A stretch of 64,000 nucleotides of DNA from Ginglymostoma cirratum. Lineage: Eukaryota. The stretch covers positions 15,578,725 to 15,642,724 of the forward strand of contig JAHRHZ010000029.1 in assembly GCA_024137785.1 (NCBI GenBank). Reading direction: 5' to 3'. The translations under genes were made by a program, and so were the position numbers. The notes under the pieces are model-generated. The model was not told the origin of the DNA and did no database searches. It saw only the letters and a list, made by a program, of their open reading frames with translations. Every line of letters begins with the position of its first letter. The stretch's first letter is position 1. Of the stretch, positions 3,139 through 47,600 are shown one piece after another.

Positions 3139-3228
3139 GCACTGGATGGGTTTGTACTTCTAGTGAGTGCTGATGGAATGATATTTTATGCATCTCCTAC
3201 AATCATCGACTATCTGGGATTTCATCAG
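3139..3228 (+). CDS. AHRR: AHRR exon, PAS-A start (AHR exon 4 equivalent), [30 protein letters not shown]
   Basis: Pyrimidine tract + cag acceptor, gtaggg donor, 90 nt, phase 0/0; not in the supplied ORF track. Confidence 0.93.
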
Positions 3229-12200: not shown

Positions 12201-15200
12201 CCCTGACTCAGCTGCAGAGAAGGTACACCGGCAGCCTCATTCATACAAGACCACTCACTGAACAGCTCAGGAATCTTCTAAAGGTGTAGATCAGGTGCCT
12301 GGAAGACTCAGTGCCGTGGGCGCCTCCCAGAATCAATGTGATCTTCTGCATGTTCCACAGTTTTCTACTGAGAACAGTTCAGTCTGGACCCCAGTGAGGA
12401 ATGCATCCACCCCTCAGATAAGGTGTTGGAAACATTCAGTACCCACAAGGCTGGTGAGGTGAATGTCAACAAGAGAACGCTCCCACTCATCCATCCACTT
12501 GCTCTAAGCAATTCATGTAGGACCCCATCATCACCAGATGCAATGGCTCATTGTTTGATGGGTCTGTGCCCTGAGGTTGTAAGCTGATTAGGAGTTCAGA
12601 CTAAGTGACCTGGTTACGTTAGGGAACAGACATTAGAAAGATCCAGAAGGGTAGAGGATTGATGGACCACAGAAAGATGTACTATTTAGCTTGGCTAACA
12701 TAATAAATTATTTAGACTTTATGTACATGCTTGTTAAAACAATGATGATAGTTACTATTTTTTCACAGATAAATGTATTTCTTTTATTTGTGCATTCCTA
12801 GTTCCTTGCTTAACACAACTAAACTTATCTAAACAACACAGTGGTTCCATTAACGCTCTAACTGGCACTGTTGCCTTTGCTCTCAAACACTCCTAAGTAG
12901 TGTCCCCCTTGTGGCCACGGGGAAGGTGAAGACAGGTTGAAGACATCTCCCTGAATATATGGCTGTAAAGGTTTGGGGGTTTAGCTTCATTTTGCAGGGA
13001 CTCCCGATTAGACTGCATCACCTGCATCCCTGCCAGGGCAGCCTTCCTTGCTTGGACCCAGGACACAGAACACCCGGCTGAGGGGCTGAGGAATCAGAGG
13101 ACGAGGAGATCCAATCTAAATGCACTGAACCCTCGTCTCTTCCTCGGAATGCAAAGGTCCTTGGGATAGTGTCCTCATCACTGGACAGTGTGTGGTGCTG
13201 GAGTTCATCTTCCATATTGTCGCTTGCCATGAAATGTATGGAACCTTCCAATCCCATGATCTCCAGGATCCAGAAGGAAAATAGTAGCCAGTGTGTGAGG
13301 ACACCCTCACCACCAAATTGACTCCTGGGAGGTTCATGGAGTAAAGAAGAAGCATTTTTTTTATATTTCTGATTCTTCATGTTGAGTGCAGTACTTCTCT
13401 AATCTGATCCTTCTTTGTCCCTCCAATATAGACTTGCACTGTGACATCTTAAATTCTAAACCTATGTCTATACATATATTAAGACGTTCCTTTGACTGGT
13501 GTCAGCTGCAAGCTAACCTGTCTACTTTTGCATATTCAGACTGATGTTATGCACCAAAGTGTGTACGATTTCATCCATGTTGATGATCGGCAGGAGTTCC
13601 AGAGGCAGCTACACTGGGCCATGAATCCACCCCAACAGGCATCTGGGCCAGATCGTCCAGGACAGGGAGCTAATGGTGCGTACATTCAGTCTGCTTTCTC
13701 ATTACCCTCAATGCATCATGGAGTAGGAGAAGTGAGCTCTGCCCTTGTACAGTAGCAGTAGGACAAAATTGACTTGGGGTTGTATGAACAGGTGGTGCTG
13801 TACCTTCTTGCCTTACAGCACAATTCAGTAATTCTCTAAACTGTATCAGAGGGCATTAATACTCCACAGCATAGTGTTGGATTGCAGTCAAATATAGACC
13901 AGACCAGGCCAGATTCTCCCATTTAATGAACTGGTTGGAGAGTATAATCTTAACTTTGCACAATAACAGAAAATTGATGATAGTCCATCAGCAACCCTTT
14001 CGACATCTCCCAATTTTCAATTCCATTGATTTCAATATTTATAATGTAGCACAAAGTCAAAATTCCACCTCAGACTTGGGTCTTCCATCAATGTGGCAGC
14101 TTTCATTGCTGTGTTTCTACTGCTGGCCTGCAACTTAACAAATTAGTTGAATAGAGTTCTATCATTTTTCATGTTTTCATGTTCACAAAGGCTGGAATAT
14201 GACCTACGCTCTGTAAATATGGATGATTTTGATAAAAATGCAACAGTAGAGGACTGACATATTGCCAGCTTTATAATAGGTTATTCTTCCTCACTGAAAG
14301 TCTCTATATTGTTATTAGCTAGCTCTATCTCTGACCCAAAATGCCATCTAACAAAATCCCCACAGTATTAGAGCTCTATCAAGTTATTTTCCCTTCACTA
14401 AAACCAACCACAGAAAATGCAGCAGTGGTGTGTTTTCGAATTTCCAAAACCTGGTCGCTGTGCATAAGACTCCTTGTGGGCAGTCCAGCCTAGTCAGATT
14501 AATCGCGAAAAACAATGGGTGAACTTGCAAGTGACCAAGTGTAGAGGTAACTAGTTGGATAAATATTAAACTTTGTTAGACTTGGTATCATCTTTAGCTT
14601 AGAGGTACGCTTTCACCACTGAGGTAAAATGTTGTAGGTTTGTGTCCCATTCTAGAGAATAAAATGCATAATCTGGACTCACACTCCACTATGTTATTGA
14701 AGGAATGCTATATAGTCAGAGGTGCTGTCTTTCAGATGGAAAGTTAAAGCAAGACAGCATTTGCCCTCTGATCTGGACTTAAATATTCTGATGACCTACT
14801 ATTGTGAAGAAGAGCACAAGGTTTCTTCCAGTGTTCTGCTTAATATTTACCAATATCATGCGTCAGATTAACTAGTCAAGATCTCATTGCTGTTTGTGGG
14901 AGTTTACTATGAGTAAATGGCTTCCCAAAATTACAATAGCAAATATACTTCAAAGTTACTTCATTGGTTGGACAGCACTTTGGAGTAAGATAGAAGTGCA
15001 AGTTTTCTTTTCTTCCTTTATAGGAGTGTTTGGAACATTCTTAAGAGATGGTAAACAGATGGAGTTTATTATTAAATGGAATTCTATTTTTGTCAAGAAA
15101 ATTCAAGTACTGGTTATATTGTTTAATATCAATGATATACATAACTGAGATAAGTTTGGAAAGCCCAAAATGCAGTATCAGCTTGGCTCAGTTCATAGCA

Positions 15201-18200
15201 CTCCAGCCTCTGAGTTAGAAGGTTGAGAGTTCAAGCCAATCACAGGAGTGGAGATCATAGTCAAGTCTGATATTTCAGAACTGCAGTCCTACTCATCTGC
15301 CTGATGGCATATTAAGCCAAAGTCACATTAGTATGTCCAGATGCATATCTGTCCAGAGGACTATCTGAAGAAGAGCAGGAGGAGTTCTCTCTTTGTCATT
15401 TTCTCTCAATCAATACTGCTAAACACTGGTGAATTGATAATCACCTTTGCTGTTTATGAAATGGATGCAGTGATTGGATTCCTTGCATGGAGGCTATGAA
15501 GTACGTTCTGAAAGATATGATAAGGCTTTAGTATGCAATGCTAGTTTTCAGTCTTTTTCTAGGCTTCCAAGATATATTGAATCACCTGAAGTCTCCTATT
15601 GCTTTGTTTACTGCTATATCACTTGTAGTGGATATGACTATGACTTGTTTCTTGGTGAGAGATTAGTTATTCTGAAGCTAACTTTACTTTGTCAAATTTC
15701 AGGTGATGAGTATCGGGGCTCTTTCAAAGTTCATGACCCAAAAGTTCTGCCACCAGAGTTTTCTCCATTTTTGAACCGTTGTTTCATCAGCCGAGTGCGA
15801 TGCCTGTTGGATAGCACATCAGGATTCCTGGTATGTAAACTGTTGAGGAAAGACCTGAAGAGAAAGCTACTGCCTTCAACTGATTTGACATCCAAGGGCA
15901 GGCGCAGGGACCTGATCGCCATGACAACATTGTGAATCATCATTGGCAGGGGCCTCCAACATGACACAGCCTAAGTATAACATTTCAGTGAGAGGAGTGG
16001 TCTTGTCATGAGCGTATATCTATGTCACTATGTGCCAACCTTAGGTTCCAGTCTGCCCCATCAGAATTGTCAGGCTGGCATCTACCAGTCTCAGAGGCAT
16101 TTGGGAAATCTCTCCTGCCACTAATTCTCTAGAAAGATGACTTTTATGGCCTTCTCAGCCCTTCCACCTCCCCACTCCAAGGAAAGGCCCACAATTGCTG
16201 CCAGCAAGCTTGTTATGCCTCCTTTCTCTCAGCCTTCCAGCCTCTGAAGTTCCACTGGCCACATCCAGCAGACCTGAGACATGGATCTTCAGAGTTAGAG
16301 AGTCCTCAATCTGGCACTTCCAGATAAATGGACTCAGTCGGAATGAGTGATGGCTCACCTACTCCTCCACATGAACCAAACCATTGGAAAATGCACTGTT
16401 AGGTTAGGGCCTGGTCTGGTCATCTGCCTTCATTAAGAATACTACAGCTGATAGACCTGGAGAGCCTTCTGGTTCTCATGCTTCAGATAGGAACAGGAGT
16501 AGACTATTCAGACACTCAAGCCTATTCTGCCATTCAAATGGATCATGGTCGATCTATATCTTAATTCTGTCTACTTGCCTTGATTTTAAGATACCCAATA
16601 TCCTTACCCAACAAAATAAGAATGGATCTTCAAATTTTCAATTGATGTGGCTTCAAGAGAAAATCTGGGGAGAAATTTCCAGATTTTCACTACCTTTTAT
16701 CTGAAAAATTACTTCCTGACATCACCCACATATGGCTCAGCTCTAACTTCAAGGTTATTCCCCTCTCCTCCCTGATTCTGGACTCCTTTAGCAAAGGAAA
16801 CTGGTTCTTGATTGCTACCCTGGCAATTCTTTTAATATTTAAATATGCTAATTTGATCACTCCTTGATCTTCTAAATGCAATGGAATGGAAGTGTAATTT
16901 CTTCACTGTTTCAACCAGTCTTTGCATTCATTATTTTATTGTCTGCTCTGCTTGGTTCTTCATCTTTTCACTCGTCTCACATTCTCACGGCAGACGATGC
17001 AGTTCCAAGGCAGACTGAAGTACCTCCAGGGACAGAGGAAGAAAACTGGTTCTGGTTCCAACCTTCCACCACAGCTGGGTTTATTCTGTATTGCCGTGCC
17101 GCTGTTGTTCCCTCCCATCAGCGAGATGAATCTGAAAGGCTTGCTCCTCAAAACCAAGCACAGGCTCGACCTCAGTCCTCAGGCACTCAATGCAAAGTAA
17201 GCGACAAGTTCCCTAACTCAATCATATTAGAATGATCAGCAATGCACTTCATGAAATGGCAGTGGAAGCAAATAAACTAACTTTCAAAGTATATGCATGA
17301 GAAAGACAATTTTGCAGTGCTCTAAGGAAAGAGTGGAGGAGTAAAACAAACTGCATAGTGTCTTCAAGAGCACTGGCACTAGGATGATGAACACCTTCAG
17401 TGCTTTTTGATTCCATAATTAGTCAAACAATGTGCCATTGAGATACCTGAACTCATGTTATCTGGATTATTAATTGAAGTCTCTGAATTACTGGCTGAGT
17501 GGCCTAGCCATCATTATTACTATTATTTTGGTAAAGCCTCTGGATGCAGCAGGCACTCAGTAACCAACTAAGAACAATATATTTCCCAGCTTCAAGTCAA
17601 ATTACTTCAAAATGCATGAATTGCAGCTGCCTCCATTACCCTCCACCTCCTCCATCCCACCCTGGTCTACTTTCACTGATCACAAGCAAAGCTATTTAAA
17701 TTCAGGAAAACAACCTGTAGGGAGTCTTCAAAGGTTAGGCAATACCAGATGGCCTTTAGGGTAAACCAAAAGGAGTTCCTCTTCTGAACTCCTTTCTCAT
17801 CCTGCCTTCATTTCTTCCTAACCCACTTCTCACATCCCCTGCCCCAAACACAACTTTGGGCCTGGTTTAAATTGGAGAAGCTCCTTCTTATAACTCAAAA
17901 CAGCTCAGCCTCCGACTTGGGGAAGACTAAAGATCAGAAATGAAATTCTTAAGACCTGAGACCAGTGGATTTTTGTCGAGTAAAGAATCAAAGAGTACAG
18001 AATAAGTGCAGGTAAATGTAGTTGATCAAGTCTGCCACAATCTTAACAAATGTTAGTAAAGACTCAAGGGGCTGAATGGCCTATTTCCTTTCCTACATGG
18101 TCAGAGGTCTTTGCTCAGAAGCAAACTTGATACCAATTGAATGGAGATGAAATAAGAATTAGCATATACATTTTATTTTCAAATGTCACTGCTGGGAGAT

Positions 18201-21200
18201 AGTATTCAAATTTGGCAATGCTACAAAAGAGGCTTGGGGATGTTCTTTCTGCTGGCTGTTGAAGAATCTGCCCCTGTTCTTCTGCTTTCTCCTGCTCAGT
18301 CTTAAACTCCAATTAAATCAGATGTGGCTATTAGGGCAATGAGCTGACTGATAAATGAAAACAGAAGTTCTGTGTTTTTATTAATAGGGACAGACAAAGC
18401 AAAATTCAGCATCCAGTTTCCTCGCCCTTCCTCAGTGCCTCCCCCACCCCTGCAAATACCCACCCTCAAATTCACTATCTGACCTCAAACAATCAGGGTT
18501 ACTTCAGGACACAAAGCACTCCATCCAATAATTGGGTCAGAATACAGAATGTCAACACACATGATGCCAAATCGAGTGCTTCCAGCATTATGTTTTTGTT
18601 CTGAGAATATTTAGTTCCTGAATTCTATCCCCACCATCAAAATACTTTTGAGTTCCACCGAGCAATACAAGTCCAGCATTTCCATCTGCTGGTAAACAGC
18701 CGGAATTACACGTGCACCTAAATCCCTTTTATTGTTCTCTTAAACTGCAAAGCCAACAGTCATTGTACTTGGCAATATTTTTAAATCATTTGGAACAGAC
18801 ATTGTAGTTTAAGGAAAGTGAAATCAGCCCGATTTTGCCCCAGCTTCTGATCATTGTATTTTTCAGTTAAGCCAATGTATTGCTTTATCCCTAGATGCCT
18901 TCAAGAAGGTGGTTTTTGTCACAATATTAATTTGCGTATTAGATACTATCTAGTACTTGATATTGAATATGGTACGGTACCCCGAAATCCACAGAGGATC
19001 ATCTGATCTTTGGGTGTAAAGCAAGTTTAGTACATTCAGCATTTTTTTCATTTATTTATTCACGGGATACGGGCATTGTTGGCCAGGCAGCATTTATTGC
19101 CCATCCCTAATTGCCCAGAGGGCAGTTTAGAGTCAACCAGATTGCTGTGGGTCTGGAGTCATATGTAGGCAGACCAGGTAAGGATGGCAGTTTCCTAAAG
19201 GGCATACGTGAACAGATGGGTTTTTCTGACAATCGACAATGGATTCACAGTCATCATTAGTCTTAATTCAAGGTATTTTATTGAATTCAAATTCCACCAT
19301 CTGCCATGGCGGGACTCGAATCTGGATCCCCAGAAAGTTATCTGGGTCAACAGTCCAGCGATGATGCCACTAGGCCATTGCCTCGCTCTATCATTAAGAA
19401 CCAGCCTGCATTCAAAGTTTTGTTAAATTTTTATGCAAGCTAAATCTGGGATTTTCATTGCTGCTCTTTCAACCTGAGATGTGATATAAATGAGTCACCT
19501 TCTTTAAACACTGCAGTTCGTGGTGCGGATACAGTTAAGTACCTTGTAACATTCTTACTAAATTGACAATGAATACAATTTGTCAAAGCCAGTCTGATTT
19601 TTACATTGCATGGAATCTTATAGTATATACAATGCATTACTAGCAGCTAAGTTTCATTGCCTATGCCAGGCATCAAATCTTCCAGTGTACCTTGCACAGG
19701 ATGTCATGCTTTGGCACTTAGACCTGTGAGAGTGATAGTTTGTCATGTGCACAAGAGAAGATAATGTAGAAAATGCCTGAATTATAATAAAGCTCAAAGA
19801 GACCCTGAGCCAATTGCAATTGATCCCTCATTCAACAAAGGCTAGATATATCCTTGGAAATTAAGGTCATTTAGATCTTTTCTCTGTCCCAGTAAGGGCC
19901 AATGGACTCTCATTCGAAGGTTGCCCATTGCCTTTCCTACTGGCTTGTTTTTGACAGGGGCACCTGAGGAAATCAAAGTCGACAACTACAGTAATCAGGA
20001 TCCCCCGAGTTCATATGGTATAGTAAGTGTCCCAGAAATCTCCCTTATACTATTTGATCTTCCTGTTGCTACAAATTCTTTCTGTTTTATGGAACAGAGA
20101 AACAGGAATAGGTATTTCAGCCCGTAAAGCCTGTTCTGCCATTTTGTTAGTTTGTATCTTAACCTTCACCAATCCTGGCTGTGTAGTCTATAATATCTTT
20201 GTCTAACAAAAACCTGTTGTAATGATCCTAGCTGATATTATTACTGGACAAGCAGATCTGTTCTGAGGAAGGGTGACCAGACCCGAAACTTTAACTCTGT
20301 TTTAACCTTCACAGAAGCTGCCAGACTTGCTGAGCTTTTCCAGCAACTTTGTTTTTGAAGCAGATCCCAGACCGAAATCTAGTTGGATTATCATATTTTG
20401 TTTTTTTTGTATTTAACTAGCTTGCTTTTCACCACAAGCACACAATTCTGTAGATATGGTTCAATCAGAAAACAGAAGTTTAATATGAGAAAGAAATTAA
20501 GATAAAGCAGAATAAACCCAGCTGTTTATGTGAAATACAATTTGAAAGATTTTGAAATACAGAATAAAAATACAATCCCATCTATTCCAACACCATCATT
20601 TACAGCACTCGGTATCAGAGAGAGTCCCCTCCTTTCATACATCTAGAGGTTTGATGTATCTTTTCGTTCTATTCTCAGCTTTAGGAGTTTGATAGTCTTT
20701 TCCTCAATTATTCGCACAACTGAGCATAGAACTTCTCAACTTCAAATAACCCCTTCAGGGTTCAAACCAAACATTTTGGTTTGAAGCCTTCAACTAAAAT
20801 GGTGCCATTGAGGTAACCTATTTCCTAACTGTTCTAAACTGATTCCTTTCTCCAGGAGAAACTGTTTCTTACATCTTACGTCAGCTAGGACCTCTGTGAA
20901 CTGAAACCAAAAGTTTTCCAAGCTACAGGCTTTTCCTCTAAAAAATCAATTCCTGATTCTTCTAAACCAAATTCAAGCTACTGCTCTTTTGTTTCATTGT
21001 AAAACTCGAGCAATGCAAACAAATACACATTACCACTCAGGAACTCTCTCTCTGAGATAGCACGGTGTGGAGCTGGATGAACACATCAAGCCAAGCAGCA
21101 TCAGAAGAGCAGGAAAGCTGACGTTTTGGGCCTAGACCCTTCTTCAGAAATGGGGGAGGGTAAGGGGATTCTGAAATAAATAGGGAGAGAGGCGGACAGA

Positions 21201-23959
21201 AGATGGATAAAGGAGAAGATAGGTGGAGAGGAGGCAGACAGGTCAAAGAGGCGGGGGTGGAGCCAGTAAAGGTGAGTGTAGGTGGGGAGTTAGGGAGGGG
21301 ATAGGTCGTCCAGGGAGGACAGACAGGTCAATGGGATAGGATGGGGCTGGTAGGTAAGAGATAGGGGTGGGGCTTGAGATGGGAGAAAGGACAGGTTAGG
21401 GAGGCGGGGACAAGCTGGGCTGGTTTTGGGATGCGGTTGGGGGAGGGGAGATTTTGATGCTTGTGAAGTCCACATTGTCCTTATTATTAGTCCTTAATAT
21501 TTAATCTTTTTAGCTCCTGGGGTGCAATACCCCGAACTGAACACGGTGCACTAGATGCTGTCTGAGCAGAATTTTATATGAATTTAACATAACATCTACC
21601 CTCTAGTGATGCAATGGTTCCATTTTGTTGCAGGGGTAAAGCAGCTGCAGGATGGTCAGACGCAGAACTCCGAGCAAGGTCAAGTTGCCACTACCTCCAC
21701 TTCACAGACATGCTGTACTGCACAGAGAACCAAATACGAAGTAAGTTCCCCCCAAACACCTCCACCTCACTATTTCTCTCTCCTTTTAAAGCTTGCTCAT
21801 TTAACTTAGTCTTTGCCAAATTATTGGTCACCTATCCTGATGTGGCGAGGTGTTATATTACGGTTGATTACATTTCTATGAAACATAATGGCACTTTTTG
21901 ATCGGTTGAAGGCACCATATGAGTATAAAGTTGTTGTAGGTTAGAATCTGCACTCCACAATCAATGGTGTGAAATTTTCCAAATTGTTTAGAAACAGACT
22001 AAGCAGAGTAAAGTTGATCAAATGTTATTCTGAGAAATGGTTTATGTTCTCACAAACAGTGATGAATGCTGAAGAAAAGGGTGTCACAGTCTTCAGAGTA
22101 CTCACAAAGGAAGGCCAATGGGTTTGGCTTCAAAGTAATGGCCATCTGCCCTACAGGAACAAAACCCCAGAAGATGCCACGTCACCTAAAGAGGAAATCA
22201 AGTAAGTCTTATTTCACAATTTTTGTATTATTGTCATTCACTGACTATTAATTTTTTTTATTTTAAATGTCAAAACGTACATTTTGTTTTCCTCCAGTGT
22301 TGCTGTCAGAAGCATTCTGGAGATTAATCTTTACATTCTTGGGATCTCCAGGGTAATCTGAGACTTTTGTGCATTTATTACCAGTTCCTTTATAACCTGC
22401 AACTCTATTTAAACTACAGTCAGTACAAATTGTACTCTTACCTCACTTAGAAGAGGATTATCTTGGTTCATTTATCTATTAATTTGATCAATAATATAAT
22501 CCTATTTTCTTGTATATCTACAGAGCTTTGTTCATGCACTCAGTGCACAGAAATGAGTTGTGAATGAGGGAGTAATCCCAATTGCTTCTGCCCAGAAGAG
22601 TACCTAAAATGCTATAACCAGCCACTTTAAAATTGAAGTTAATGCAAATAGGTGAATGCCTAGATTCATGGTTGATAATCTTCAAAGCCATACTCTATGC
22701 ATGGTCTAATAATATTTCTCACTTTCCACAGGGATGTAGAGAGATCCAGAGAGGAGCACCTGAGGAACCAGTCAAATCCTGACCAGACTGCCAGTGCCAA
22801 CAGACTAGTGTACAGCAACTGCACTGAAACACCTCTGCAGTTAAAACATCTCTATGAGCAGCATGCAGAAAAAGAAGGAAGAGAGGAGAAATATGAGACC
22901 ATTAAAAGTGATGGTGGCATCAACCAACATGAGCCACTTAATTTTTGCACCTCATTTCCCAGGGGTCCAAAAGTTACCATGGCAGATGATTTATGGGGTC
23001 CAGAGTACTCCAGAGGTCTCTCGAATTTGCAGCCACCAAAACAAATGGAGAAGATAAGTAACATTCCTGGTCGGGAGGCCAAACCCTTCTGTGGCAGAAG
23101 TAGACTGCTGTCCGAGCCCCGGCTCAGATGTAGCACCCAGGCCTCCAGCTTTCAAGGTATACCCCAGAGCTTCAGGAGCGTTGGAGAAGAGGTGGAGCAG
23201 AACCAGCCCTATGGCAGCTTGCCATACACCAACCTGGATGGCTACCCGTCTGAAAACTGTAAGACTGATGATGCCAGCTTTGTGGCTAGCAGACCAAAGG
23301 AGCACCCCACTGCGGGGTACTGCAACAGTGCAGAAGTGTTTCTGGGAGTGCACATCAAAAGTGAATACAGTCCTGACTCGCACAATGAACTGGACGAGCC
23401 ACTGGGATCTCCAAGTCATCAATGGGCTGACAGTGGAGAAGTTGGGCAGAAAATGGCAACAAGCTTCCCAGGGCAGCCTCAGGTGAAGTGCGACCCCAAC
23501 GCGCTGGAGCAGTTGCCACCCTGTGAAAAACTGAAGACTCCTCTGCTACCCCCATTCTGCAGAGCCAGCATGGTCAAAGGCAACAGCTTGTGGATGACAA
23601 GCAGCACATGTAACCACAACAGGCTGTTGAAAAATGACATAGACATGGCTCATTTCAGTCCACAGAGGGCTGTCCAGTCCCGTTGCACTCACCATGATCA
23701 AGTCGCAGACTGTTTACAGGCAGGTGCCTTCCCACAACGTCCTATCCAGGACAAGGGCTTAAGTCAGGAGACACACAAAATACCGCTGCAGTTCAAAGGT
23801 CATGACCTAATCCACACAGTCATCAAACGCGAACCCTCACTCTCTCCTCCTTGGTCTTGTGACAATCCACACAACATACAGTCAAGCCTACAAAGAAATA
23901 TGCCCAGTTGTTTGTTAAATTCATTGACTCACAAAATTACACAGAACACATATTTGTAA
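3139..23959 (+). CDS. AHRR: AHRR, partial gene span: join(3139-3228,13540-13675,15703-15830,16994-17196,21634-21740,22060-22201,22732-23959); 5' bHLH exons are outside the window
   Basis: All introns are GT-AG and phases are compatible; 2034 nt = 677 aa + TAA. AHRR-type PAS-A motifs ([31 protein letters not shown]), C-terminal SUMO-type motifs, no Q-rich activation domain, and position directly upstream of EXOC3 as in human 5p15.33. Confidence 0.88.
4655..5150 (+). mobile_element. CR1 LINE 3' end
   Basis: [26 protein letters not shown]-type C-terminal ORF2 coding and (CTCTATGA)n tail. Confidence 0.85.
5410..6290 (-). mobile_element. L2-type LINE remnant
   Basis: Minus ORFs [22 protein letters not shown] and [18 protein letters not shown] (post-RT region). 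Confidence 0.75.
6945..7295 (+). mobile_element. Deu-domain SINE (SacSINE1/AmnSINE-like)
   Basis: CTGCACTGTTGAAGGTG..CTACATTACAACAGCGACCACACTCCAAAGTAAATTCATTG. Confidence 0.6.
8673..9797 (+). mobile_element. Probable solo LTR inserted into a Deu-SINE (8300-8672 and 9798-9890)
   Basis: TG...CA ends, internal AATAAA, 3' motif CTTGTCCAGTATTAGCATCAGCTG shared with the element at 20218; flanks join to give a Deu-SINE tail. Confidence 0.55.
8828..9168 (-). mobile_element. tRNA-headed SINE with L2-like tail, nested in the LTR
   Basis: Minus-strand TGGCCTAATGG / GGTTCAAATCC boxes; similar copies at 19050-19385 and 63530-63800. Confidence 0.7.
9990..10745 (+). mobile_element. CR1 LINE 3' remnant
   Basis: Degenerate LVQPQLE..FW..LERVQK.FTRM motif region. 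Confidence 0.7.
10874..13400. mobile_element. Possible decayed PIF/Harbinger DNA transposon
   Basis: Plus-strand Myb/SANT-like traces at 11440-11680; minus-strand [14 protein letters not shown] resembling a HARBI1 N-terminal motif near 13260-13320; boundaries uncertain. Confidence 0.35.
13540..13675 (+). CDS. AHRR: AHRR exon, PAS-A ([31 protein letters not shown]...)
   Basis: ttcag acceptor, gtgcgt donor, 136 nt, phase 0/1. Confidence 0.92.
14580..15560 (+). mobile_element. Two tandem Deu-SINE copies (about 14580-15020 and 15180-15560)
   Basis: GAGGTGCTGTCTTTCAGATG, GAAGAAGAGCA and CATTGCTGTTTGTGGGAG motifs with tRNA-like heads. Confidence 0.65.
15703..15830 (+). CDS. AHRR: AHRR exon ([27 protein letters not shown])
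   Basis: tttcag acceptor, gtatgt donor, 128 nt, phase 1/0; LDSTSGFL is AHRR-like (AHR has LDNSSGFL). Confidence 0.93.
16485..16880 (-). mobile_element. CR1-type LINE 3' remnant
   Basis: ATAGGAACAGGAGTAG..CCTATTCTGCCATTCAA end motif. Confidence 0.55.
16994..17196 (+). CDS. AHRR: AHRR exon ([14 protein letters not shown]...[17 protein letters not shown]), end of PAS-A and start of PAS-B-like region
   Basis: ggcag acceptor, gtaagc donor, 203 nt, phase 0/2. Confidence 0.93.
19050..19385 (-). mobile_element. tRNA-headed SINE with L2-like tail
   Basis: High similarity to 8828-9168 (GGCAGCATTTATTGCCCATCCCTAATTGCCCAGAGGGC). Confidence 0.75.
20218..21053 (-). mobile_element. Probable LTR remnant related to 8673-9797, inserted in a CR1 remnant
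   Basis: Reverse complement ends CTTGTCCAGTAATAATATCAGCTAGGATCATTACA. Confidence 0.45.
20259..20357 (+). mobile_element. 99-bp PLE 3'-end insertion with hammerhead motif
   Basis: 9-bp TSD AAGCAGATC (20250-20258, 20358-20366); CTGAGGA-A-GGGT-GACCAG-ACCC-GAAAC at 20263-20289. Confidence 0.75.
21054..21477 (-). mobile_element. PLE 3' fragment
   Basis: Reverse complement matches 49910-50335 (NVDFTS.KI end, pyrimidine-rich UTR); hammerhead GAAA mutated to AAAA. Confidence 0.85.
21634..21740 (+). CDS. AHRR: AHRR exon, PAS-B-like ([35 protein letters not shown])
   Basis: ttgcag acceptor, gtaagt donor, 107 nt, phase 2/1; aligns with AHR exon 8 (G.ILGY.E.[24 protein letters not shown]). Confidence 0.88.
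22060..22201 (+). CDS. AHRR: AHRR exon, PAS-B-like ([48 protein letters not shown])
   Basis: aacag acceptor, gtaagt donor, 142 nt, phase 1/2; aligns without gaps to AHR exon 9 (MIKTGESGMTVFRLL.K..RW.WVQSNARL.Y.NGRP). Confidence 0.88.
22732..23959 (+). CDS. AHRR: AHRR last coding exon, C-terminal repression region
   Basis: ccacag acceptor, phase 2, 1228 nt to TAA (ORF 22697..23959); contains EPLNF, IKSE, VKCD and [12 protein letters not shown] motifs. Confidence 0.9.
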
Positions 23960-35535: not shown

Positions 35536-35679
35536 ATGGAAGAAACTGACCGGGAAGCTGTGTGGACAGCTGCACAGCGAGTGGCTGGGATGCTGCAGCG
35601 ACCTGATCAGCTTGATAAGGTGGAGCAGTATCGCAGACGGGAGGCTCGGAAGAAGGCCTCTGTGGAAGCCAGGCTGAAG
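35536..35679 (+). CDS. EXOC3: EXOC3 coding exon 1 (exon acceptor at 35513, ATG at 35536)
   Basis: MEETDREAV...SVEARLK, gttagt donor. Confidence 0.94.
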
Positions 35680-38600
35680 GTTAGTAGGCTAGAAGGGCAA
35701 AATACTGTTCTTACTTTTGACCTGCACGTTGCGAAGGAGGCACTTCCTGATATGTTCTCTTTGTGTCATATAAGCAATAACTTGACTACCTGTCGAGTCG
35801 TCATCCTCCTGTTTTGCACGTTGGAAGACAAGAATTCAAGTGAAAAGTGGGAAATGGTTGCATAGAAATGATTCACTTCACATTTAAACGTCATTCACTG
35901 TCTCAATCTTTTATCGTTCCATATTTGAAGCTACCTGTGTAAGCTTGTCATGTAAGTACACTTTCCAATCACTGCAGTGCAATGACTCCGCTGCAGGTGG
36001 CGCTGTCATTGTAGTTTGACAAATTAAATTAAAGTGGACCCAATCATTTATAATGGATAACATTAACTTCCCATTAATCAACTTAAATTCCAATTTGTTG
36101 ATTACACAACGACGAGAGGCACAGTTTTAAGTCTTTGGGTAAAAAAATGCAGCAGGATGAGAGGAAGAACTTTTATGCAGGATATGCTAATGACTTGAAG
36201 CTTTTGGCCTATAAGGGTTTTGCAAGCAAAGCATATCAGTAAGTTTAGAAAGGAAATTGGATGGGAACTTGAGGAAAACAAATTTGCAGGGCTCTGGGGA
36301 TGAAGTGTGGAAATGGGACTGACTATTACGCTACAGCGAGCTGGCATGGGTGAAATGGCCTTCTGTGTTATAATTGTTCTGAGTCTTACTGACTCTGTAT
36401 GATCGTTGCTAGATGTAAATAAAAATGGAAAATCTCGAATATAAATATATCTTAAAGTAAAATAGCTATTATAAAGTACTCAGTTTCCTCAACCTGAGTG
36501 AGGTTTCAGTTGTATTTTTAATCTGTTACTAAACTAATTCCATATGCTAACTTGTAATTTAAAGTCTATGTCCTATCAGAGTTTCTTAAAAATTTAAAAT
36601 ATATTTTAAATGAAAAAGTTCAGATTTACTATTGAGTAATTTATTTAAATTGTTGTACTGAAAGGTGTAATTTTTCAGGTATCTGCTTTTGCCAGGATAC
36701 ATTAAAGTCCAATCAAGAACACTGAAAACATTAACTTTTTTGATACTACTTCTGGCTGTCTCAAATTCTAAATATGACCAATTTGAAACGTACTAAACTG
36801 ATTTTTGTTTTGAGGAATCTGCCGTGCCTTCGTACCCCTGGATTGTTGATATTTAATGTCCTGTAATCCAAATCCTGCCTACAAATGGTATATCAATGTT
36901 ATAACACAGACCTGGCCATTCAGTTCAGCCTGTCCATTTTGACATTTATCCTTCACACAAGCAAGGACAGTTACTGCAGAAAGGAATCATCCTCATTTTA
37001 AATCTTCAAACTGAATGGGAGAATGTTTGTAGACTAAAACTTACACAAGGGAGAAAAAACATCATGTATCTGTCTATAGTTTGAAACAAATTCAATGAAC
37101 CTTCCATAATGATAATGATAAAACTTCATTGGTCAGCAAATGACATGGCCTGAGCAGTGCTTCAAGCTGTCAGCATTTCTGTCCGGAACCTCCAGATGTG
37201 CATTTCTCCTATTTTTACAAACATTGCTTTTTGAATTGTCTTTCAGGCAGCCATCCAGTCCCAGTTAGATGGAGTGCGGACAGGGCTAAGCCAGCTTCAC
37301 AATGCCTTGAATGATGTTAAAGACATCCAGCATTCCTTGGCAGATGTCAGCAAGGACTGGAGACAGAGCATTAATACAATAGAGAACTTGAAGGATGTGA
37401 AAGATGCTGTGGTTCAGCATAGCCAACTGGCAGCTGCTGTGGAAAACCTCAAAAATATTTTTTCAGGTAATTTTAACTCTTGTGTTTTTGGTATGTGACA
37501 ATCCCTGAATGAGAATTTAAACTGAGGAAAATCTTGGTGAAATTAGTCTCTTCAATGTAACTCAGTTTCAGTTAGAGTGCACTTGGTGTTGAATTCTTGT
37601 CTATGATGCTCAGACGATTGACTAGTAATGACAAAGCACAACATCTAAATGTGCCGCGATGGCCACCAATGAACAAATGTAATTCATTCTGTGAAAAATA
37701 ATTACTTGCCATTCTAGATTGAGAATAATTTCCAGATATAATGCCAGCATTAAATTGAAGAGACAACGATATCTTAAATGAGAAGGGAAAGATGCTGCAT
37801 TATAGAATCATACGACAGAAAATGGAGCCAGCCGACTCAACGTAGTGTGCTAGCTCTTTAAAAAAGCTGCCAGTTAATTGCACTTTCTTATTGCCTTGAA
37901 ACATTTTTCTTTGCCTTTTCAAAAAGATATCCAGACCCCAAATTTCTATTGAATCTACATATACCAACCTTCCAAGCATTGCATTCAAATTAATCATAAT
38001 TCACTCGAAGAAATGTAGTTTTCCTCCCTCCCACCTGGGTATTTTTTTTTGCCAGTTATCTTAAATCTTGAATCTCTGTGACCACCAGTCTCACCAATGA
38101 AAATAGTTTCCCTTTATTTTCACTATCAAAACTGATGGTGATTTTGAATACTTACTAAATTTCCGTTAAACTCTGATCTGAGAAGAACAAACTGGACTTC
38201 ATGTAACTAGTCCCTTATTTCAGTACCATTATGTACTACTGCAAAGAATGTTGTCTCAAAGTGCACTGGCCAGAATTGGACACAGCGCTCCAGCCTAGCT
38301 CGTGATTTACCAATGTAATTAATTTATTACCTTTTAACATTTGGGGTAGGATCATTAATAAGGATATTTTGAATTGCTTTTAGGATTTGGATGGTTCTTT
38401 TGGAAAGCAAGAAAAGCATATTTTTGAGTTTCCACAAGATAGCCATTAAATTGCCATTTTAACTGCAATGTGATATGTCACAGCTGCAATATATGGGAGC
38501 TCCTGGATGCCTCTGTGATCCAGGGCATACCTGTCTGAGTGAGTGTTTTCAACTGGAATCCTCAATTCAGAAAATGAGGTGGAAGCCAAACTACAAATTT

Positions 38601-41600
38601 GTCAAGGAGAGGAAGGTTTACTTGGCCATTTTATTCTGGGAGGTGGTCTCACCCCTTATACTAGGACCTTCTGTTTGGTCATTAGTTGGCAAAAGAAAAG
38701 CGTGGCTGCAGCTGGGACAAGGGTGTAGGAGCCTCAGCCTTTGCAGTTATCTGACAGGTTTGAGGCTGTTCTGTTTATTTAGAAGTGGGAATTGCCAGGT
38801 AGGTGAGGTAGTGATAGGGATCGACACTATGCTCTGGAACAAAAAGCAAGAGTCTCGGAAGGTTAACTTACATGCAACAGAATTAGCAGTCTCTGACCTG
38901 TTCTTGTAACTAATTTGCTGGTTACTTTGCTGGTCCAATTAAGTTTCTACTCAGTGGTATCTGTCAGAATGCTGTTGGGGAGGGATTCAGCAGTTGTAAT
39001 GCTTGTTGAATGTCATGGGAAAATTGTTAGATTCACTCTTGCTTGCAATGGCTAGTGTCTGGCACTTGTGTTGCGTGAATGCTATTCGTTACTTAAACCT
39101 AAGTGTGAATATTGTCTAGATCTTTCTCCTTGCAAGCGCAGACTGCTTTAATATGAGGAGTTGCCAAAGGCACTTTTCCATATTAACATTCCCACTTTTG
39201 AGGTTAAAGTTAAGGTGGCCACCCTAAGTATCTCCTGCAGCACTGTTCAGAGGCTGAGATAGTGTCATAGAGCTCAGAAATAGACTCATAATCCCAAACT
39301 AAACTAGCCCCATCTGCTTGCTCCTGGACCATATCCCTCCAAACTTTTCCAATTTGTGTACTTATCCAAAAGTCTTTTAAACATTGTAATTGTATCCATC
39401 ACTTCTTCAGCCACAAGCAAACCACCCTCTGTGTAAAAAAAAAAAAAAAAAAGCCCCTCTATCTTTTAAAATTTCTCTCCTGTCACCTTAGAAATGTGCC
39501 CCATACCCATGAAACTCCCATCCTTGGGGAAAGACAACTACCATTAACTCTATCTGTACCCCTTATTGTTTTGTAAACTCGTATCAGGTCGCCTTTCAAC
39601 CTCCTATGTTGCAGTGAAAGAAGTCCCAGCCTATCCTGCCTTTAGTTATATCTCAAGCCTTCCATACCCGGCAATATCTTGGTGAATCTCGTCAGAACCC
39701 TGTCCAGATTAATAATATCCTCCCTATAACTGGACTACCAGAACTGGACGCAGTATTCCAGAAGAGGTGTCACCAATGCCCTGTACAACCACAACGTGAC
39801 TTCCCAACTCTCTTACTCAAAGGACTGAGCAATGAAGTTGAGCATGCCAAATGCCTTCTAACCACCCTGTCTATACGTGACACGGACTTCAAAGAATTAT
39901 GTACCTGAACCCCTAGGTTCCTCTGTTCTACAAAATAATCTCTAAACAAAACCAGCTTTTTACATATTGGATATGGCTTCAAACAGTGGAGATTTTCCCA
40001 TCTACAAAATTATAAGTTTTTGTCCTCAACACCCATCTCCAAACTGTTTATGTAAATTAGAAAAAGCAAGGGTCCCAACGCTTATCCCTGGGGGACAGCA
40101 CTTTCAACTTTCCTCCAGTCTGAGAAATATCCATCTTACCTACCCTCTGCATAGCTTTTAACTAATTTTTAATTTCTAAGGTTTTGGAGTGGATTTGTAG
40201 GTGAGCAGAGACAGGCACGGGAATTTCTAGAAGCCTGGTACTCCACGAAGAAAGCCATCAATAAGCACATAGAACTCGACCCCATATACACGCGACTATG
40301 AAGGAAAACCGGAAGTGAGGCAATCCAGCTCAACGGACTCCAGAGTTTAAAAACTGGGCAGGAAAACACACCGGCGCTTCATCAGAAGCTGCACTGATGA
40401 TGTTACCCAGCAGGGTAATGAAACGTCTACAGATAAACAAACCAGCTCAGCGAGCCAACCAACCACAATTTTTAATTTTTGTTGGCAAGGAACCATCAAT
40501 CCCAAACATTTATAACCTGCTAACTAACCTGCCATGTGTCAACTTATCAAATGCTTTCTGAAAGTCCAAATATACAACATCCACAGCAACATCTTCCATT
40601 GCCTGCGTCACCTTGTCTAAGAATTCAGTTAAATTTCTCAGACATGATCTGCCCTTGACAAAGCCACGGTCTAGAATTAATTATTTTTTTCTAAGCATAT
40701 ATTTAGCTTAACCCATATTATGGGCTCCATTAGTTTTCCCACTATTGATGTCAAGCTGACAGGTCTGCAGTTTCCTGAATTGTCCTTTGCTGCATTCTTA
40801 TTTGCACATTTGCAATCCTCCACTCCCCTGGGACTAATCTTGTGTTCAGAGAGGCCTGGAAAATTTCTGTCAATGGCTCTGTGATTTGCTCCCTTACCTC
40901 TCTTGACGCTCTAGTATGCATTCCCATCGATGCCAGGCGACTTGTCTACCTGGAGTGCTGTCAGCCTTTTCAGTATCTCTTCTTTACGCTATACTGCTCA
41001 GTTGCTCAACAGTTATATTTTCGACTGGACCATGGTCACCATTTTCTAATTTGCTAAATACAGAAGCAAAGTACTCATTTAGTACCTCTGCCATACCCTT
41101 TGCTTCAGTAAGCAGCTCCTCCTGCTTGTCCCTTATGGGCTCCGATCTGTCCTTCATTAATTTTTCCCTGTTAATATGTTTGAAGAACATTTTACAATTT
41201 GTTTTAGCATAACTTGCCATCCATTCCTCACACTTCCTCTTAGCCTCCTTTTAGCCATAGCCTGTTTCCGTCATTTCAGATACTCTTGCTGATTTTTATT
41301 GCTATTATTATTTTGGTATGCATCATATAGCTCCTTTCTGTTCCTTACTTGCTGATAAATATCTTTAGTCATCCAGGGTGATTCAGCTTTGGATACTCTG
41401 TTTTTATTTCTCATGAGTATGTACCTAGCTTGCACCCTGTTCGTCTCTCTTTTGAAAGTCTCCCGTTTTTCATCCATTCTTTTATTCATCAAAATATATT
41501 CTCGATCCACCTACTTCAGTTTAACTTTTAGACCCCTAAAATCTGTCCTTTTCCCGCCTGGGATTTCAATTCTTGACTGATTTTTATCCTTTTCCAACTT

Positions 41601-44600
41601 AATATTGAACCGTATATTATGATTGCGATTCCCCAAATGCTCTCCCACTCTGTTTTCCATTTAGCCTGCCTCATTTCCTAGAACCAGACCCAGCACAGCT
41701 TCCTCCCGAGTATGACAGGAAATGTACTGTTCCAGAACATTTTCCTGCACGCATTGCAGGAATTTCTCCCCTTCTGTGCCCACACTCTACCTTTTCCCAG
41801 TCTGCCCTAGGATAGTTGAAATCACTGTCCTACTTGCCCTGCAGGTTTCTGTAATCTGCCTACAAATGCTGTGTTCTACTTCCCACTATTGGAGAACTGT
41901 AATAAAAACTCAACAATGTCACTGCTTCCTTCCCATTTCTCACCTCTAACCATATAGATTCTAACTCAGGAACTACATCCCGTTCAAGGGCAATGGTATC
42001 ACCTTTGACCAAGATTGCAACACCTCCCTTTTTACACACCCTGTTTCTACTAAAAATCTTATGGAATATTAAGTATCTAGCCCAGTTCTAGCTTGAGCCA
42101 CATTTCTGTCAATGCTATTATGTAATATTCCTTTTGAGCAATTTCTGCCTCCTGTTGACTAATTTTGTCCACTATCATCTGTGTATTTACATACATAGAG
42201 TTTTGCCCAGTGGAAGGTCACCATTTCTTTGTCCACTGTCAACACTCAAGTCTTCCCTCATTTCCTTTTCTCCATTTCCCATCTTCTCTTTTGCCCTCAC
42301 TGATACTTCCAAAACCAGGTCCATTAGTTGACCCACCAGTCTGTCTTACAAGTTTAAGCCCATCCCCACTATACTAATATACTCTGAGACAAGGGATTAG
42401 GTAGTTTAACAATGGATTTAAGTAGCTTAAATTTGTGACATTGCAACAAGCTGTGTGCAAAACCTGAGCACAGTGTTCATCTTTCAAAACAAATTTATAT
42501 CTACAAAGAATTGACTGTAGAAACATTGGATTTGGCTGTTTTTTTGTGGAAAAAAAATCTAAATCCTTTGCATTTAATACATACATTGGTATAGCCCAAT
42601 GGAGAAGATTACTTCTCTTTTTAAAGAATTGTGAATCAATTTTCTCTATACCAGAGCAATTGTTTCTATCCCCTTCAATTGCATACTGGCACAATAAGAC
42701 AGAAGCCTTGGGGAAAATTCCTAGACTCATGAAATAATGGACAGGTTGTTTGTAAGCAAGAAGGTTTGCTTCCACTGGGAATAGATACTATGTGAGGGTT
42801 CAATTTGTGTTGTTGAACATGTTTTTCTTTACCTATATATGTAAGCCTACAGAAAGAAGCTGTTTGGATCATCATGTCTTTGCTGGCTTCAGAAAATAGA
42901 TGCAATGGGCTACACCTTAATATTCTGTGTAAAGACATTTCCTCTAACCTCTCTTGTCACTATCTTTGTAAAGAATTTGTAAAACACAACTTTATTTGAA
43001 ATGATATTCAGTGAAGAGATTATTTCACTATTTGTATACTGTTTTGCAGTATTACTTTTGTGACATGACTGTACATCAGTTAACATTCTACTTCTCTGGT
43101 TTTATAGTTCCAGAGATTGTGCAAGAAGCCTGTGAACTGATAGAACGAGGAGAACTACTTGCAGCACACCGAAAACTGATGGATCTGGAGTGTTCCCGTG
43201 ATGACCTCATGTACGAGCAGTACCGCATGGACAGCAAGAACACACATGATATGAAACTCATCCAGGCTTACTTTACTGAGGTGCAGAACCTCTCCGAACA
43301 AATGGGCAAGCAGATCTGGATGCTGGTGCAAAGGGCTTCGGTCACAGTGCGCAGTGACCCAGCCCAGCTGGTTTCAGTGATTCGAATAATTGAGAGAGAG
43401 GAAAAAATTGATAAGCGGATGCTTGACCGTCAGAAACAGACAGGATTCATACCACCTGGGAGACCAAAACGGTGGAAAGACAAGTTGTTTGCTGTGCTGG
43501 AACAGACTGTTGCCAATCGGATTGAAGCCAGTCAGTCTGATACACGGGAGCAAGACAAAATGTGGCTTGTGCGTCATCTGGAGCTCTTGCGAAAGTATGT
43601 TCTTGAGGACTTGCTAGTCATGAAGAGCTTGATGGTGCAGTGTTTTCCACCTCATTACAACATCTTCAAAAAACTTCAGAATTTGTATCACCAGGGGCTA
43701 ATAGCGCGTGTAGAGGAACTAGCCTCTGAGGATTTGGAGGCCAATGAAATTGTTTCCCTTCTGACATGGGTTCTAAATACATACCACAGGTAAGAGTTGA
43801 ACATGTTGGTGTGTAATACCATATGGGGTGTGAGTGTGCAATTTTTCTCACATGATTTGTCCAGACCTGTTAAGCTCCCATTTTGACCTGTCATCAGGGA
43901 ATTGGAAGAAACAAACATTTTCTAATTGGTGGGAGAAGGAAAGAAAAATTAGAGGCAAGTTATTGTGGAACCAGAAATATGTATGTGGGTACATTCAGCA
44001 AAACATTTAGATTACAGGTTGATCTGGGTCGTTTACTGAGGATTTTTTTTGACATATCAGCAAGAAATACTGGAAATACTTCTGGCCAGCATTTGTGGAG
44101 AGAATGGATGAATTAGCATTATTGATAAACTGAAGGAATTTGCAAGCATTTTAAAAAAAGAGAGCACAGGGAAAATGCTTCTGTGACAAAGCGGTTTTTT
44201 TTTTCCTATCATGATGTTAGCCTGAAGCAATAGGAACCAAAGTAAAATAAAGCAAATGTATTAACTGCTATGAAACACTGGCATGCTTATCATAGTTGCA
44301 AAAGGTGAGGTAGGAATGAGTGAAGGCATGAAAACCTGAAAAGTAACAATGTCTCCACCGGCCCAGTTTTTTAGGAGATAAGTGTTCCAGTTGACAGCAA
44401 GAAGACGGACTTCAAGATGCTATGCCTCATGAGGTATTTTTGACTCCCAGTCGAGGTATTAAAGCCATACTTTAATTAGAATTTTAGGAATCCTCATGGT
44501 TTCTGTTGAACTAATTATCAGCTGTGCCATCTTCTTCCAGTGAAGAAAACTTGCACTAAACTTGTATTTATTTTGACTAGTATTTTTAATCAAGGCTAAG

Positions 44601-47600
44601 CTCAGCATGGGAATGTACGAATAGGAGTCAGGCATTCAGCCCTGTGAGCCTGTTCTGAGCAGGGATCATGAATTTACCTATCTTAATACCCTTGTCTAAC
44701 ATTAAAATGTTAATCTCCAATTTACCTGGCCTCTACAAGGTTTAAAGCCTATTTTGAAGAGGTTCTTCCTTACATCAACCTAGCTCCAATTTCAAGGTTG
44801 TTTCCCCGTTGCTCTCGATTTTCTACTGCAGGAACTTTGAGTTTTATTCTTTCATGGGCTTTACTGATAAGGGTGGTGTTTGTGACTGATTGTCTTTAGA
44901 AGGTGATGGTGACTGCCTTCTTGAGCAGCTGCAGTTCATTTGGTGCAGGTACACCCATTGTATTGTTTTTTGTGGGAGTCCCAGGATTTTGATTTAGCAG
45001 CAGTGAATGTGTGTTGATTGTAGTCTGAAATCAGAAAGTGTCTGTAGCTTGGAGATGAAATTGCAAGTGGTGGTGTTTGCATATGTCTGTTGCTGTTGTA
45101 CTACTTGGTCATAGAAGATATGCATTTGTAAGATGCTGTCAAAGGAGGCTTGATGAATTGCTGCATTTTGTATGTTGCACACAGTTACCACTGAACATAG
45201 GTTTTGGATAGAGTCATTTTTGTTTAATCTGTTGATCCTTTCTAATCGAAAGCATCTCCATTGGATCAACTGCAATCATACTTGAAGGAACTCATGTCTA
45301 GCCTTTGGAACTTGATCTTATATGATTTTTTTTTTTTCTGTCTGTTCATGGGATGTGGGTGTGGGCAAGTATTTATTCCCCATCCTGAGAAGCTCTTGAG
45401 AATTTGATGGTGAGTTGCCACCTTCAACTACTGCATGTCCATTAGATGTAGATATGCCCAAAATGATGTTGGGAAGGGAGTTTCTGCATTTTGATTCAGC
45501 GACACTGAAGGAATGCTGATACATTACCAAGTAATGACGGTGAGTGGATTGACAGGGCACTTGCAGGTGGTCGTACTCCTTTGTACCTGTTGCTGTTATC
45601 CTTCTTGATGGTGGTCATGGTTTAGAATGGTGCTAAGAAGCCTTGGTGAATTTCTGCTGCATAGGATGAATGCTACATACCACTGCTACTAAGGAGTCAA
45701 GAGGTGAGTTATGCTCTTCAGGATTCCTAACATCTGACCTGCTCTTGTAGCTGCAGTATCTAAATAGACAGTCCAGTTGAGTTTCTGGTCATTTAAGTGG
45801 GTGATTCAGTAGTAATAATGACACTGAATGACAAAGGGAAACTGTTACATTTAACCCTATTAACATTGGTAACAACCTGGGGAATCTACACTCATGTGCT
45901 CCAAGATCAGTGTGATGTCTAGAACTTGATGCAGTATTTCACATGCAGTCTACTCAGAACTTTCTGCAGTTGTATCTTAAAGTTGCTAGGGTTTATCTTC
46001 AACAGCTTGCTCTGGTTCTTCATTTTAAACTTTGAGTTTGTGCTGTTGAATTTTAATTCCAATTGAATTCTGTTATGTTCTGATATCTTTATTGTATAGT
46101 GTGGATATGATGGGACATCCCGACCTAGCACCAGAGGTGGATGTAAAGAGCCTGGAACCCTTATTGTCAAATGATGTGGCCGATGTGCTTCTCAGCAGAT
46201 ACATGACAACCCTAAAAGTGAGTTAACAGCATCTAAATGGGGGATGGAAGGGTGTGATATCAGTATAAAATCAGCATTTACATCCTTTCTGACAAAAATA
46301 AAGGTTTATGGTACATTTGCCGCAAATATTTCTTATAGTCAAGAGTTGAGAGAAGAAAGAAAACACCCTCTGTGAGAAGGTGGAAACTTGTTTTTAAAAT
46401 GTCTGGGCACTACTCAAGCACAAAGTCTTAACTGAAACAAAGTCTAACACTGGAGCATTTTCGTAGTAACAAGGAAGCTTTCCTATTAAAATAACGTGGT
46501 TTTACTGCTACCTGGGACAGGAGGTGATAAGTGATTTAATCTGGGTGTGGAGGTACTTGGAAATCTCTAGCAGAGTAGCTAAAGGAGAACCAGTGGATGT
46601 ATAATTTTGGATTTTTAGAAGGCATTTGATCAGGTGCTATACAAAGGTTTGTCACACAAGAGCAGGCTGAGAGAATTGGGAATAATACGTAAGCATGGGT
46701 TAAGTATTAGTTCACGGCCAGAAAATACGAATAAATGAGTCACTGTTGATTTGGCAGGTTGTAAGCAAGCAGTGGAATTTTGGAAAGGATCAATGCTTGT
46801 ATTTAGCTGTTTATAATCTACATCAGTGACTTAGTTAAGGAACCAAGTGTAATATATCTAGGTTTGCTATTTTTATAAAACTATGTCAGATGGTAAGCAG
46901 AGATGGGGGTCATAAAAAGGCTGCAGAAGGACATAGTCCAAATATGTAATTGGGTAAGAATGTTGGTGACAGAAATCGAACACTTGGTGTATTTGATATT
47001 CTTCACAGCAACATCCTCCAGATATGACATTTTGCCTGTCAAAAGTACATTCTACTTTACATCTTTAACAATAACTTCGTACTGTCCGATGTTCTCTGCA
47101 CATTCATGTGGCTTTTAATTATAAATCTTTCATGTGTAACTTCATTGTTTTTGTTATCCCACATTAATGTCTTTATATAGAGTGCTAGTCTTGGTAATGG
47201 TGACCATGAAACCATTGTCAATTGTCATAAAAACCTGTCTGATCTACTAATATCATTTGGGGATGAAAATTTGCTCTTCTTACCCGGTCTGGCCTACTTA
47301 AGACTCCAGACATGCAGCAATTTGGTCTTAAATGACTTCTGAAATAGCAAACCACTTGCTCGTGTCAAACCATTTCAGAACAGTTAATAAGGAATGAAAC
47401 TAGGTGGACCACACAGCATCAACCAGAAACAACAGCAACACACCCACTCCTGTTAACCTTGAAGGGTCCTTCTTAGTAACATCTGGGGTGTGACCCAAAA
47501 TTGGGAGAGCTGTCCAACAGATTCTTAAACAACAGCCTAGTATCAAAATATGGCCAAACACATTGGCTGCTACAGAGGAGCTTGGCAGCATCATAGATAT

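Follow-up and report, generated by a model that had tools for sequence, protein, structure and literature searches.

The bHLH-PAS gene AHRR of the shark Ginglymostoma cirratum includes in its transcript two exons that encode part of a PAS-B region, a domain that AHRR is said to be without in several papers (PMC4057711, PMC10570930, PMC8001110). The orthology of the gene, the splicing of the two exons, their retention throughout the chondrichthyans, and their conservation above the level of the tail are established. At the level of the sequence, the same can be said of the loss of the last strand of the domain, of half of its core pocket residues, and of the loop that serves AIP and ARNT.

In the window, i.e., the whole 64-kb stretch of DNA that was analyzed, coding exons 4 to 10 of AHRR lie on the plus strand; exons 1 to 3 are upstream of the window on the same contig, with coding exon 1 at G000:C29:15419050-15419111, ∼160 kb away. 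Exon 4 (3139..3228, +, 90 nt), with which PAS-A starts, has ag/gt borders, an open frame, and a match to the Chiloscyllium protein. PAS-A continues in exon 5 (13540..13675, +, 136 nt) and exon 6 (15703..15830, +, 128 nt) and ends in exon 7 (16994..17196, +, 203 nt), which in addition encodes the A/B linker plus strands A and B of PAS-B and is followed by a gtaagc donor. Exon 8 (21634..21740, +, 107 nt, phase 2/1) encodes PAS-B helices C to F, and exon 9 (22060..22201, +, 142 nt, phase 1/2) encodes the conserved G-H hairpin and a polar, proline-containing stretch in place of strand I, the last one; both are bordered by ag and gtaagt. The last exon, exon 10 (22732..23959, +), consists of 408 codons and the stop and encodes an AHRR-type tail. 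In the joined exons, the reading frame that runs through exon 2 stays open until the stop codon at 23959, and the protein comes to 798 amino acids plus stop, as the sum of exon sizes including exon 1. The description of exons 8 and 9 in the earlier note, with their coordinates, borders, and phases, the joined peptide, the frame open into the last exon, and the match to AHR PAS-B with a single one-residue gap, proved correct. Intron 7 contains high-copy repeats (window ∼18860-19590, 19950-20680, and 21040-21600), which drew thousands of reads and contigs.

Four read runs were examined for splicing, of which X3 and X5 gave no coverage of the exons at 100% likeness. A 372-nt contig from run X2 (depth 12.5, zero mismatches) covers the 3′ end of exon 7 and contains junctions 17196/21634, 21740/22060, and 22201/22732, all of them GT..AG; run X1 repeats junction 22201/22732. 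Because a single contig skips three introns, it represents a spliced product, the run type itself being the tool's guess. Exons 8 and 9 are spliced into the transcript, and the constant skipping that the earlier note had considered does not occur. The skip joint 17196/22732 was not seen among the contigs of the two covering runs, at low depth. These data bear on the idea that the two exons form a regulated cassette, whose skipping would yield a strong, teleost-like repressor and whose inclusion would yield a weaker or differently regulated form. The two exons add up to 249 nt, a multiple of three that permits in-frame skipping, and two conserved motifs are separated by a spacer of 188 amino acids in the shark but of 101 to 102 in gar and bowfin, a difference close to the 83 amino acids encoded by exons 8 and 9. 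However, inclusion junctions are the only ones seen (at a depth so low that a minor skipped form may exist), both exons have consensus donors, and they are present in 11 of the 12 chondrichthyan models, so that such a cassette appears quite improbable.

In database searches, the gene matches chondrichthyan proteins best, and the majority of these bear the name AHRR. In two unrooted trees, built without an invertebrate outgroup and labeled with database names (types of the paralogs from the same genome were assigned from the tree), it is placed in the AHRR clade: beside Chiloscyllium in the tree of the bHLH and PAS-A regions (186 columns; 39 of 54 rows, support 100/100) and again in the tree of exons 8 and 9 (84 columns; 32 of 47 rows, support 99.5/100). 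Two rows were excluded from the trees, a partial model from Heptranchias and one from Heterocephalus in which the bHLH is doubled, and seven neopterygian rows, which have no such exons, were dropped from the second one. Since the exon 8-9 tree tracks species relationships inside AHRR, these exons were inherited within AHRR and not recopied from AHR. Judged by its sequence, the gene is an AHRR ortholog, as the earlier note had assumed in preference to AHR1, AHR2, or AHR3. Its bHLH and PAS-A clade and its psi-K-x-E tail are shared with other vertebrate AHRRs (human and mouse AHRR, teleost ahrra/b, PDB 5Y7Y). The tail, which is of the AHRR type where AHRs have an activation domain, aligns with teleost AHRR motifs, has a glutamine content of 6.8%, and carries two psi-K-x-E motifs of the SUMO consensus (IKSE and IKRE) versus 3 to 6 in the 8 bony-vertebrate AHRRs checked.

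Elsewhere in the genome, three other contigs carry four AHR paralogs whose PAS-B is intact: a tandem pair, AHR2-like and then AHR1-like by the tree (G000:C144:15086056-15347812), an AHR-like paralog (G000:C13:25424043-25574305), and a divergent one that is probably AHR3-like (G000:C89:2332870-2348730). Exon 8 is 110 nt long and exon 9 is 142 nt long in all four, which are the sizes that the earlier note had given for AHR. The suggestion that the gene discussed here is itself an AHR paralog (AHR1, AHR2, or AHR3), or an AHRR into which PAS-B exons were reintroduced by conversion from AHR, can scarcely be credited and was rejected, as both trees contradict it. One ray ortholog is labeled “aryl hydrocarbon receptor-like,” and the N-terminal half of the Chiloscyllium protein scores higher on full AHR chains than on the AHRR construct, but the latter result is a length effect, because the AHRR construct is shorter. 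Besides the AHRR placement in both trees and the species order within the exon 8-9 tree, the presence of four separate AHRs, the AHRR-type tail, and the exon 8 gap, Q337, and P382, all common to other AHRRs, argue against this suggestion.

Downstream of AHRR on the same strand is the EXOC3/Sec6 gene (window 35536-54871, +), in which positions 43101-43790 match the Pfam Sec6 family with an E value of 4e-46 and further exon-like peptides are found at 35536, 48223, and 54665. Human AHRR also has EXOC3 as a neighbor, so the synteny in the shark would match. Short peptide motifs of the expected upstream neighbor gave no match in 30 kb, an uninformative result. The 2 kb before exon 1 are richer in CpG (observed/expected ratio, 0.67). 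The only full copy of the XRE consensus TNGCGTG in the 40 kb around exon 1 is located ∼760 nt upstream of it, a weak signal given the window background of 0.06 per kb, and two further GCGTG cores are found within ∼1 kb upstream of exon 1.

The AHR-like nature of the segment is evident even from single exons: among solved structures, the best matches are AHR chains both for exon 9 alone (E value, 4.5e-7) and for exon 8 alone (E value, 0.0026, with one gap). Compared with PAS-B as it occurs in AHR, AHR1, AHR2, and AHR3 (PDB 7ZUB, 8QMO, 8XS6), the segment has the same exon borders and phases (107/142 nt versus 110/142 nt) and the same core H-x-x-D and W-x-W motifs, but it differs in its core pocket, its degenerate last strand, and the absence of the PFxFxTGEA loop. 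Exon 8 is one codon shorter than in AHR, and this one-residue gap is common to shark, coelacanth, sturgeon, bichir, and amphibian AHRRs. Residues are numbered here as in human AHR, with H291 of a stored mammalian AHR as the anchor, and the numbering agrees with the 8QMO alignment. Over PAS-B, the shark AHRR is 43% identical to AHRs, which are 84 to 91% identical among themselves over the same span. Identity to AHRs is 41 to 57% in strands A and B, helices C to F, and the G-H hairpin, and 8% in the last-strand region (AHR 374-387), where the shark protein has Y378D, 381S, T382P, and Q383K; F295L (encoded in exon 7, like the retained H291), Y322C, and H337Q are among its other substitutions. The earlier note had called this PAS-B full-length, which is right for its size but not for its last strand or its pocket; the domain is full-length in size only, and key parts of it look worn away. 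It is still possible that the last strand, although shifted, finds a different pairing register.

Profile matches give a similar picture. Pfam PAS_3 and PAS_11 score above the cut-off in the Chiloscyllium protein and in P0013. The PAS_3 match that the earlier note had proposed as a check is found in the closest database protein, that of Chiloscyllium, but it stops at position 74 of the 89-position profile (5-74, compared with 18-88 in sturgeon, 22-85 in coelacanth, and 3-88 in zebrafish AHR1b). An AlphaFold model of the Chiloscyllium protein from a 64-sequence alignment leaves the domain mostly unfolded, with a pLDDT below 50 at 284-340, but it speaks neither for nor against a complete five-stranded fold, since a true AHR modeled with those 64 sequences failed over the first half of the domain as well (274-331); only the last strand differs, being present in the control and absent in the shark model. 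A faulty-looking database model of AHR1a carries the extra Pfam families PF00078 and PF17919, which are of the reverse-transcriptase type.

In AHR-ARNT structures, eight residues (H291, F295, G321, C333, F351, L353, S365, and Q383) contact all six ligands, according to PMC11791172. The shark AHRR keeps four of these eight (H291, C333, F351, and S365), while true AHRs keep 6 to 8; F295, G321, L353, and Q383 are replaced by L, S, V, and K, respectively. According to PMC9668932, human AHR has 15 contacts with indirubin, its pocket has practically no charged residues, and mutation of H291 or S365 cuts indirubin binding. The shark AHRR retains the latter two residues, but it has 5 of the 15 human contacts (7 of 15 when compared with the stored mammalian AHR), versus 12 to 15 in true AHRs, and its K383 points into the AHR pocket. 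The domain is therefore likely to be blind to classic AHR ligands, and the ligand-sensitive repression envisaged in the earlier note is weakened by these losses. Among the residues that contact HSP90, T289-K290, Q364-N366, and the aliphatic residues at 277 and 280 are kept; the A/B linker is likewise kept in teleost AHRRs that have no PAS-B. F404 and F406 of AHR are needed for binding of XAP2/AIP, and their loop bridges the PAS-B pair and then binds ARNT PAS-B, as described in PMC9668932 and PMC11791172. This C-terminal loop, PFxFxTGEAxLY, is present in all four AHR paralogs of the same genome but absent from the shark AHRR, where Y414 is possibly kept, depending on the alignment. With F404 and F406 gone, it is unlikely that the protein binds AIP or contacts ARNT PAS-B, as the earlier note had suggested it might.

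Across the 12 chondrichthyan AHRRs, the PAS core is near-invariant, with L293, H326, D329, F351, and W362 found in all 12 and H291, P297, G309, and W360 in 11. Position 382 is Pro in 10 of the 12 versus Thr in all 11 AHRs, the IVL of AHRs at 306-308 is mostly replaced by alanines, and Q383 is kept in 5 of the 12. In two of the four AHR paralogs of G. cirratum, position 382 is Lys instead of Thr. All four rays (P0007, P0009, P0010, and P0011) have C333 replaced by Arg or His and L315 by His and retain Q383, whereas most sharks retain C333 but have K383, so the pocket decay differs between rays and sharks.

These features allow for a reading in which the chondrichthyan PAS-B folds and gates repression, the protein being held by HSP90 and set free by a ligand that may be polar or anionic to match the altered pocket, which would make AHRR a ligand-activated repressor. 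The near-invariant core, the AHR-profile scores (86 to 114 bits over PAS-B in 11 of the 12 chondrichthyan database proteins and 102 bits in G. cirratum), the Pfam matches, and the retention of H291, C333, F351, S365, and several HSP90 contacts are all consistent with it. However, the last strand is degenerate, most so in the Ginglymostoma lineage with its four changes at 378-383; F295L, Y322C, and H337Q, the Arg or His at position 333 of the rays, and the loss of the AIP loop point the same way, as does evolution ∼3 times faster than that of bHLH and PAS-A. We consider this gating mechanism unlikely.

The distribution of the segment was surveyed with profiles built from AHRs only, which were used to score the AHRR proteins from three similarity searches, three unnamed rows being excluded; the sample comprises relatives of the shark and sturgeon queries under their source names, with the best 120 matches of each large search. 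Among the matches listed, exon 9 scores at least 15 bits in 11 of the 12 chondrichthyans (the exception is a truncated model), the single coelacanth and bichir, both sturgeons, all 22 amphibians, all 3 turtles and crocodilians, all 25 birds, all 6 lepidosaurs, and both the monotreme and marsupial entries. It is below 15 bits in all 22 placentals listed (best score, 10.1 bits), with a remnant visible in 18 rows and in Heterocephalus. Nothing alignable with exons 8 and 9 was found in the predicted proteins of the two holosteans (gar and bowfin) and 32 teleosts among the matches listed. Exon 8 scores at least 9 bits only in 11 of the 12 chondrichthyans and in the coelacanth, again among the matches listed. 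By these scores, chondrichthyans hold the most AHR-like PAS-B of the AHRRs sampled. Several models look faulty, such as a truncated sawshark AHRR with unrelated sequence after exon 7, one with a doubled bHLH, a teleost model with an over-long spacer, and a 1,378-amino-acid crane AHR.

In non-placental tetrapods and in coelacanth, sturgeon, and bichir, AHRR resembles that of the shark in keeping both exons and the G-H hairpin, with the one-residue gap seen in fishes and amphibians, but erosion is complementary: identity in the last strand is 36% in coelacanth and 44% in sturgeon versus 8% in the shark, but these lineages have lost strand B and a large part of exon 8. Birds, amphibians, coelacanth, and sturgeon all conserve the hairpin with its W-x-W despite erosion of the first half of their PAS-B. 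Because the end of the domain that was retained differs between sharks and bony vertebrates, their common ancestor can be assumed to have had a whole PAS-B, so that AHRR in the earliest jawed vertebrates would have been complete in this respect. Chondrichthyans would then have eroded the last strand and bony vertebrates the first half; amniote lineages may have shortened exon 8, and neopterygian fish may have deleted both exons in frame. The sensor domain was likely lost by stepwise, lineage-specific erosion. In the earlier note, the shark protein was seen as an intermediate, with PAS-B lost after the split between sharks and bony fish. The most AHR-like copy is indeed found in chondrichthyans, but a single loss is at odds with the AHR-like exon 9 in coelacanth, sturgeon, bichir, amphibian, reptile, bird, monotreme, and marsupial AHRRs.

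Exons 8 and 9 of chondrichthyan AHRRs diverge ∼3 times faster than bHLH and PAS-A (0.51 versus 0.16 to Callorhinchus), and no such speed-up is seen in AHRs (0.20 versus 0.23 and 0.07 versus 0.22 for the same regions). Their conservation nevertheless differs by segment. Mean pairwise identity among the 12 chondrichthyans is 77% in exon 8 and 81% in the G-H hairpin versus 57 to 63% in most of the tail, with the last-strand segment at the level of the tail (62%); among 10 bony vertebrates, the hairpin is at 65% and the tail at 39 to 42%. Exon 8-9 lengths are nearly fixed. As protein identity by segment, which is not dN/dS, these data read as relaxed but real constraint. They bear on the view that the two exons are functionless leftovers, retained through preservation of the frame and slow protein evolution in sharks. 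Such a view fits their faster evolution relative to PAS-A, their total loss in the 2 holosteans and 32 teleosts, and their decay in the 22 placentals among the matches listed. It does not fit the conservation of exons 8 and 9 above the tail in chondrichthyans, that of the hairpin in bony vertebrates, or the stable lengths, and we regard it as slightly more doubtful than a gated PAS-B.

On balance, the shark protein is probably an ordinary AHR-induced repressor, in which the retained segment is a conserved but incomplete PAS-B that does not sense classic AHR ligands. Mammalian AHRR is a feedback repressor induced by AHR, with SUMO sites in its tail, as reviews describe. By analogy with the known biology of AHRR, AHR-ARNT would induce the shark gene via the upstream XRE, and its product would pair with ARNT through bHLH and PAS-A, compete at XREs, and recruit co-repressors by the SUMO-site tail. 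More tentatively, the PAS-B remnant may owe its retention to a structural or docking function, most plausibly via the G-H hairpin, the portion whose conservation extends all the way from sharks to birds. It is also conceivable, if improbable, that chondrichthyan AHRR is a living intermediate with a foldable PAS-B gated by HSP90 or by a non-dioxin-like class of ligands, and that the hairpin is an unrecognized binding surface in non-placental AHRRs, given up independently by teleosts and placentals.

A phylogenetic preprint (doi 10.1101/2022.07.13.499904) assigns cartilaginous fish to the AHRR clade, with the term PAS-B absent from the passages covered, and the passages covered of PMC13747243 and PMC3899389 contain nothing on PAS-B retention in AHRR. 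No description of such retention in non-mammalian AHRRs was found in a literature search that was partly loose and had key AHRR reviews outside its scope. The novelty of the retained PAS-B, which the earlier note had made conditional on there being no such description for chondrichthyan AHRR, is thus provisional, and public annotations of chondrichthyan AHRRs already carry Pfam PAS-B or PAS_3 labels.

The absence of PAS-B, by which the earlier note had defined mammalian and teleost AHRR, fits the teleost proteins, which are without both exons, but placentals keep an alignable remnant, shortened and degenerate, and the shark has a Pfam-detectable segment of full PAS-B length. This definition fails for the shark AHRR and, since it also fails for those of coelacanth and sturgeon, the lack of PAS-B is a trait of some lineages and not one that defines the clade. 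That AHRR lacks PAS-B is true of teleosts and, in degraded form, of placentals, the two most-studied groups. The gene described here is an ordinary ortholog, and the feature is broader than first thought and less intact. AHRRs form a graded series of natural constructs, with sharks at one end, where the domain is almost complete, and neopterygians at the other, where it is wholly deleted; the series may tell which losses made a constitutive repressor out of a chaperone-held, ligand-gated activator. The series also bears on whether the AHRRs of birds, amphibians, and sharks are regulated unlike those of mouse and zebrafish, and hence on species differences in the response to dioxin.
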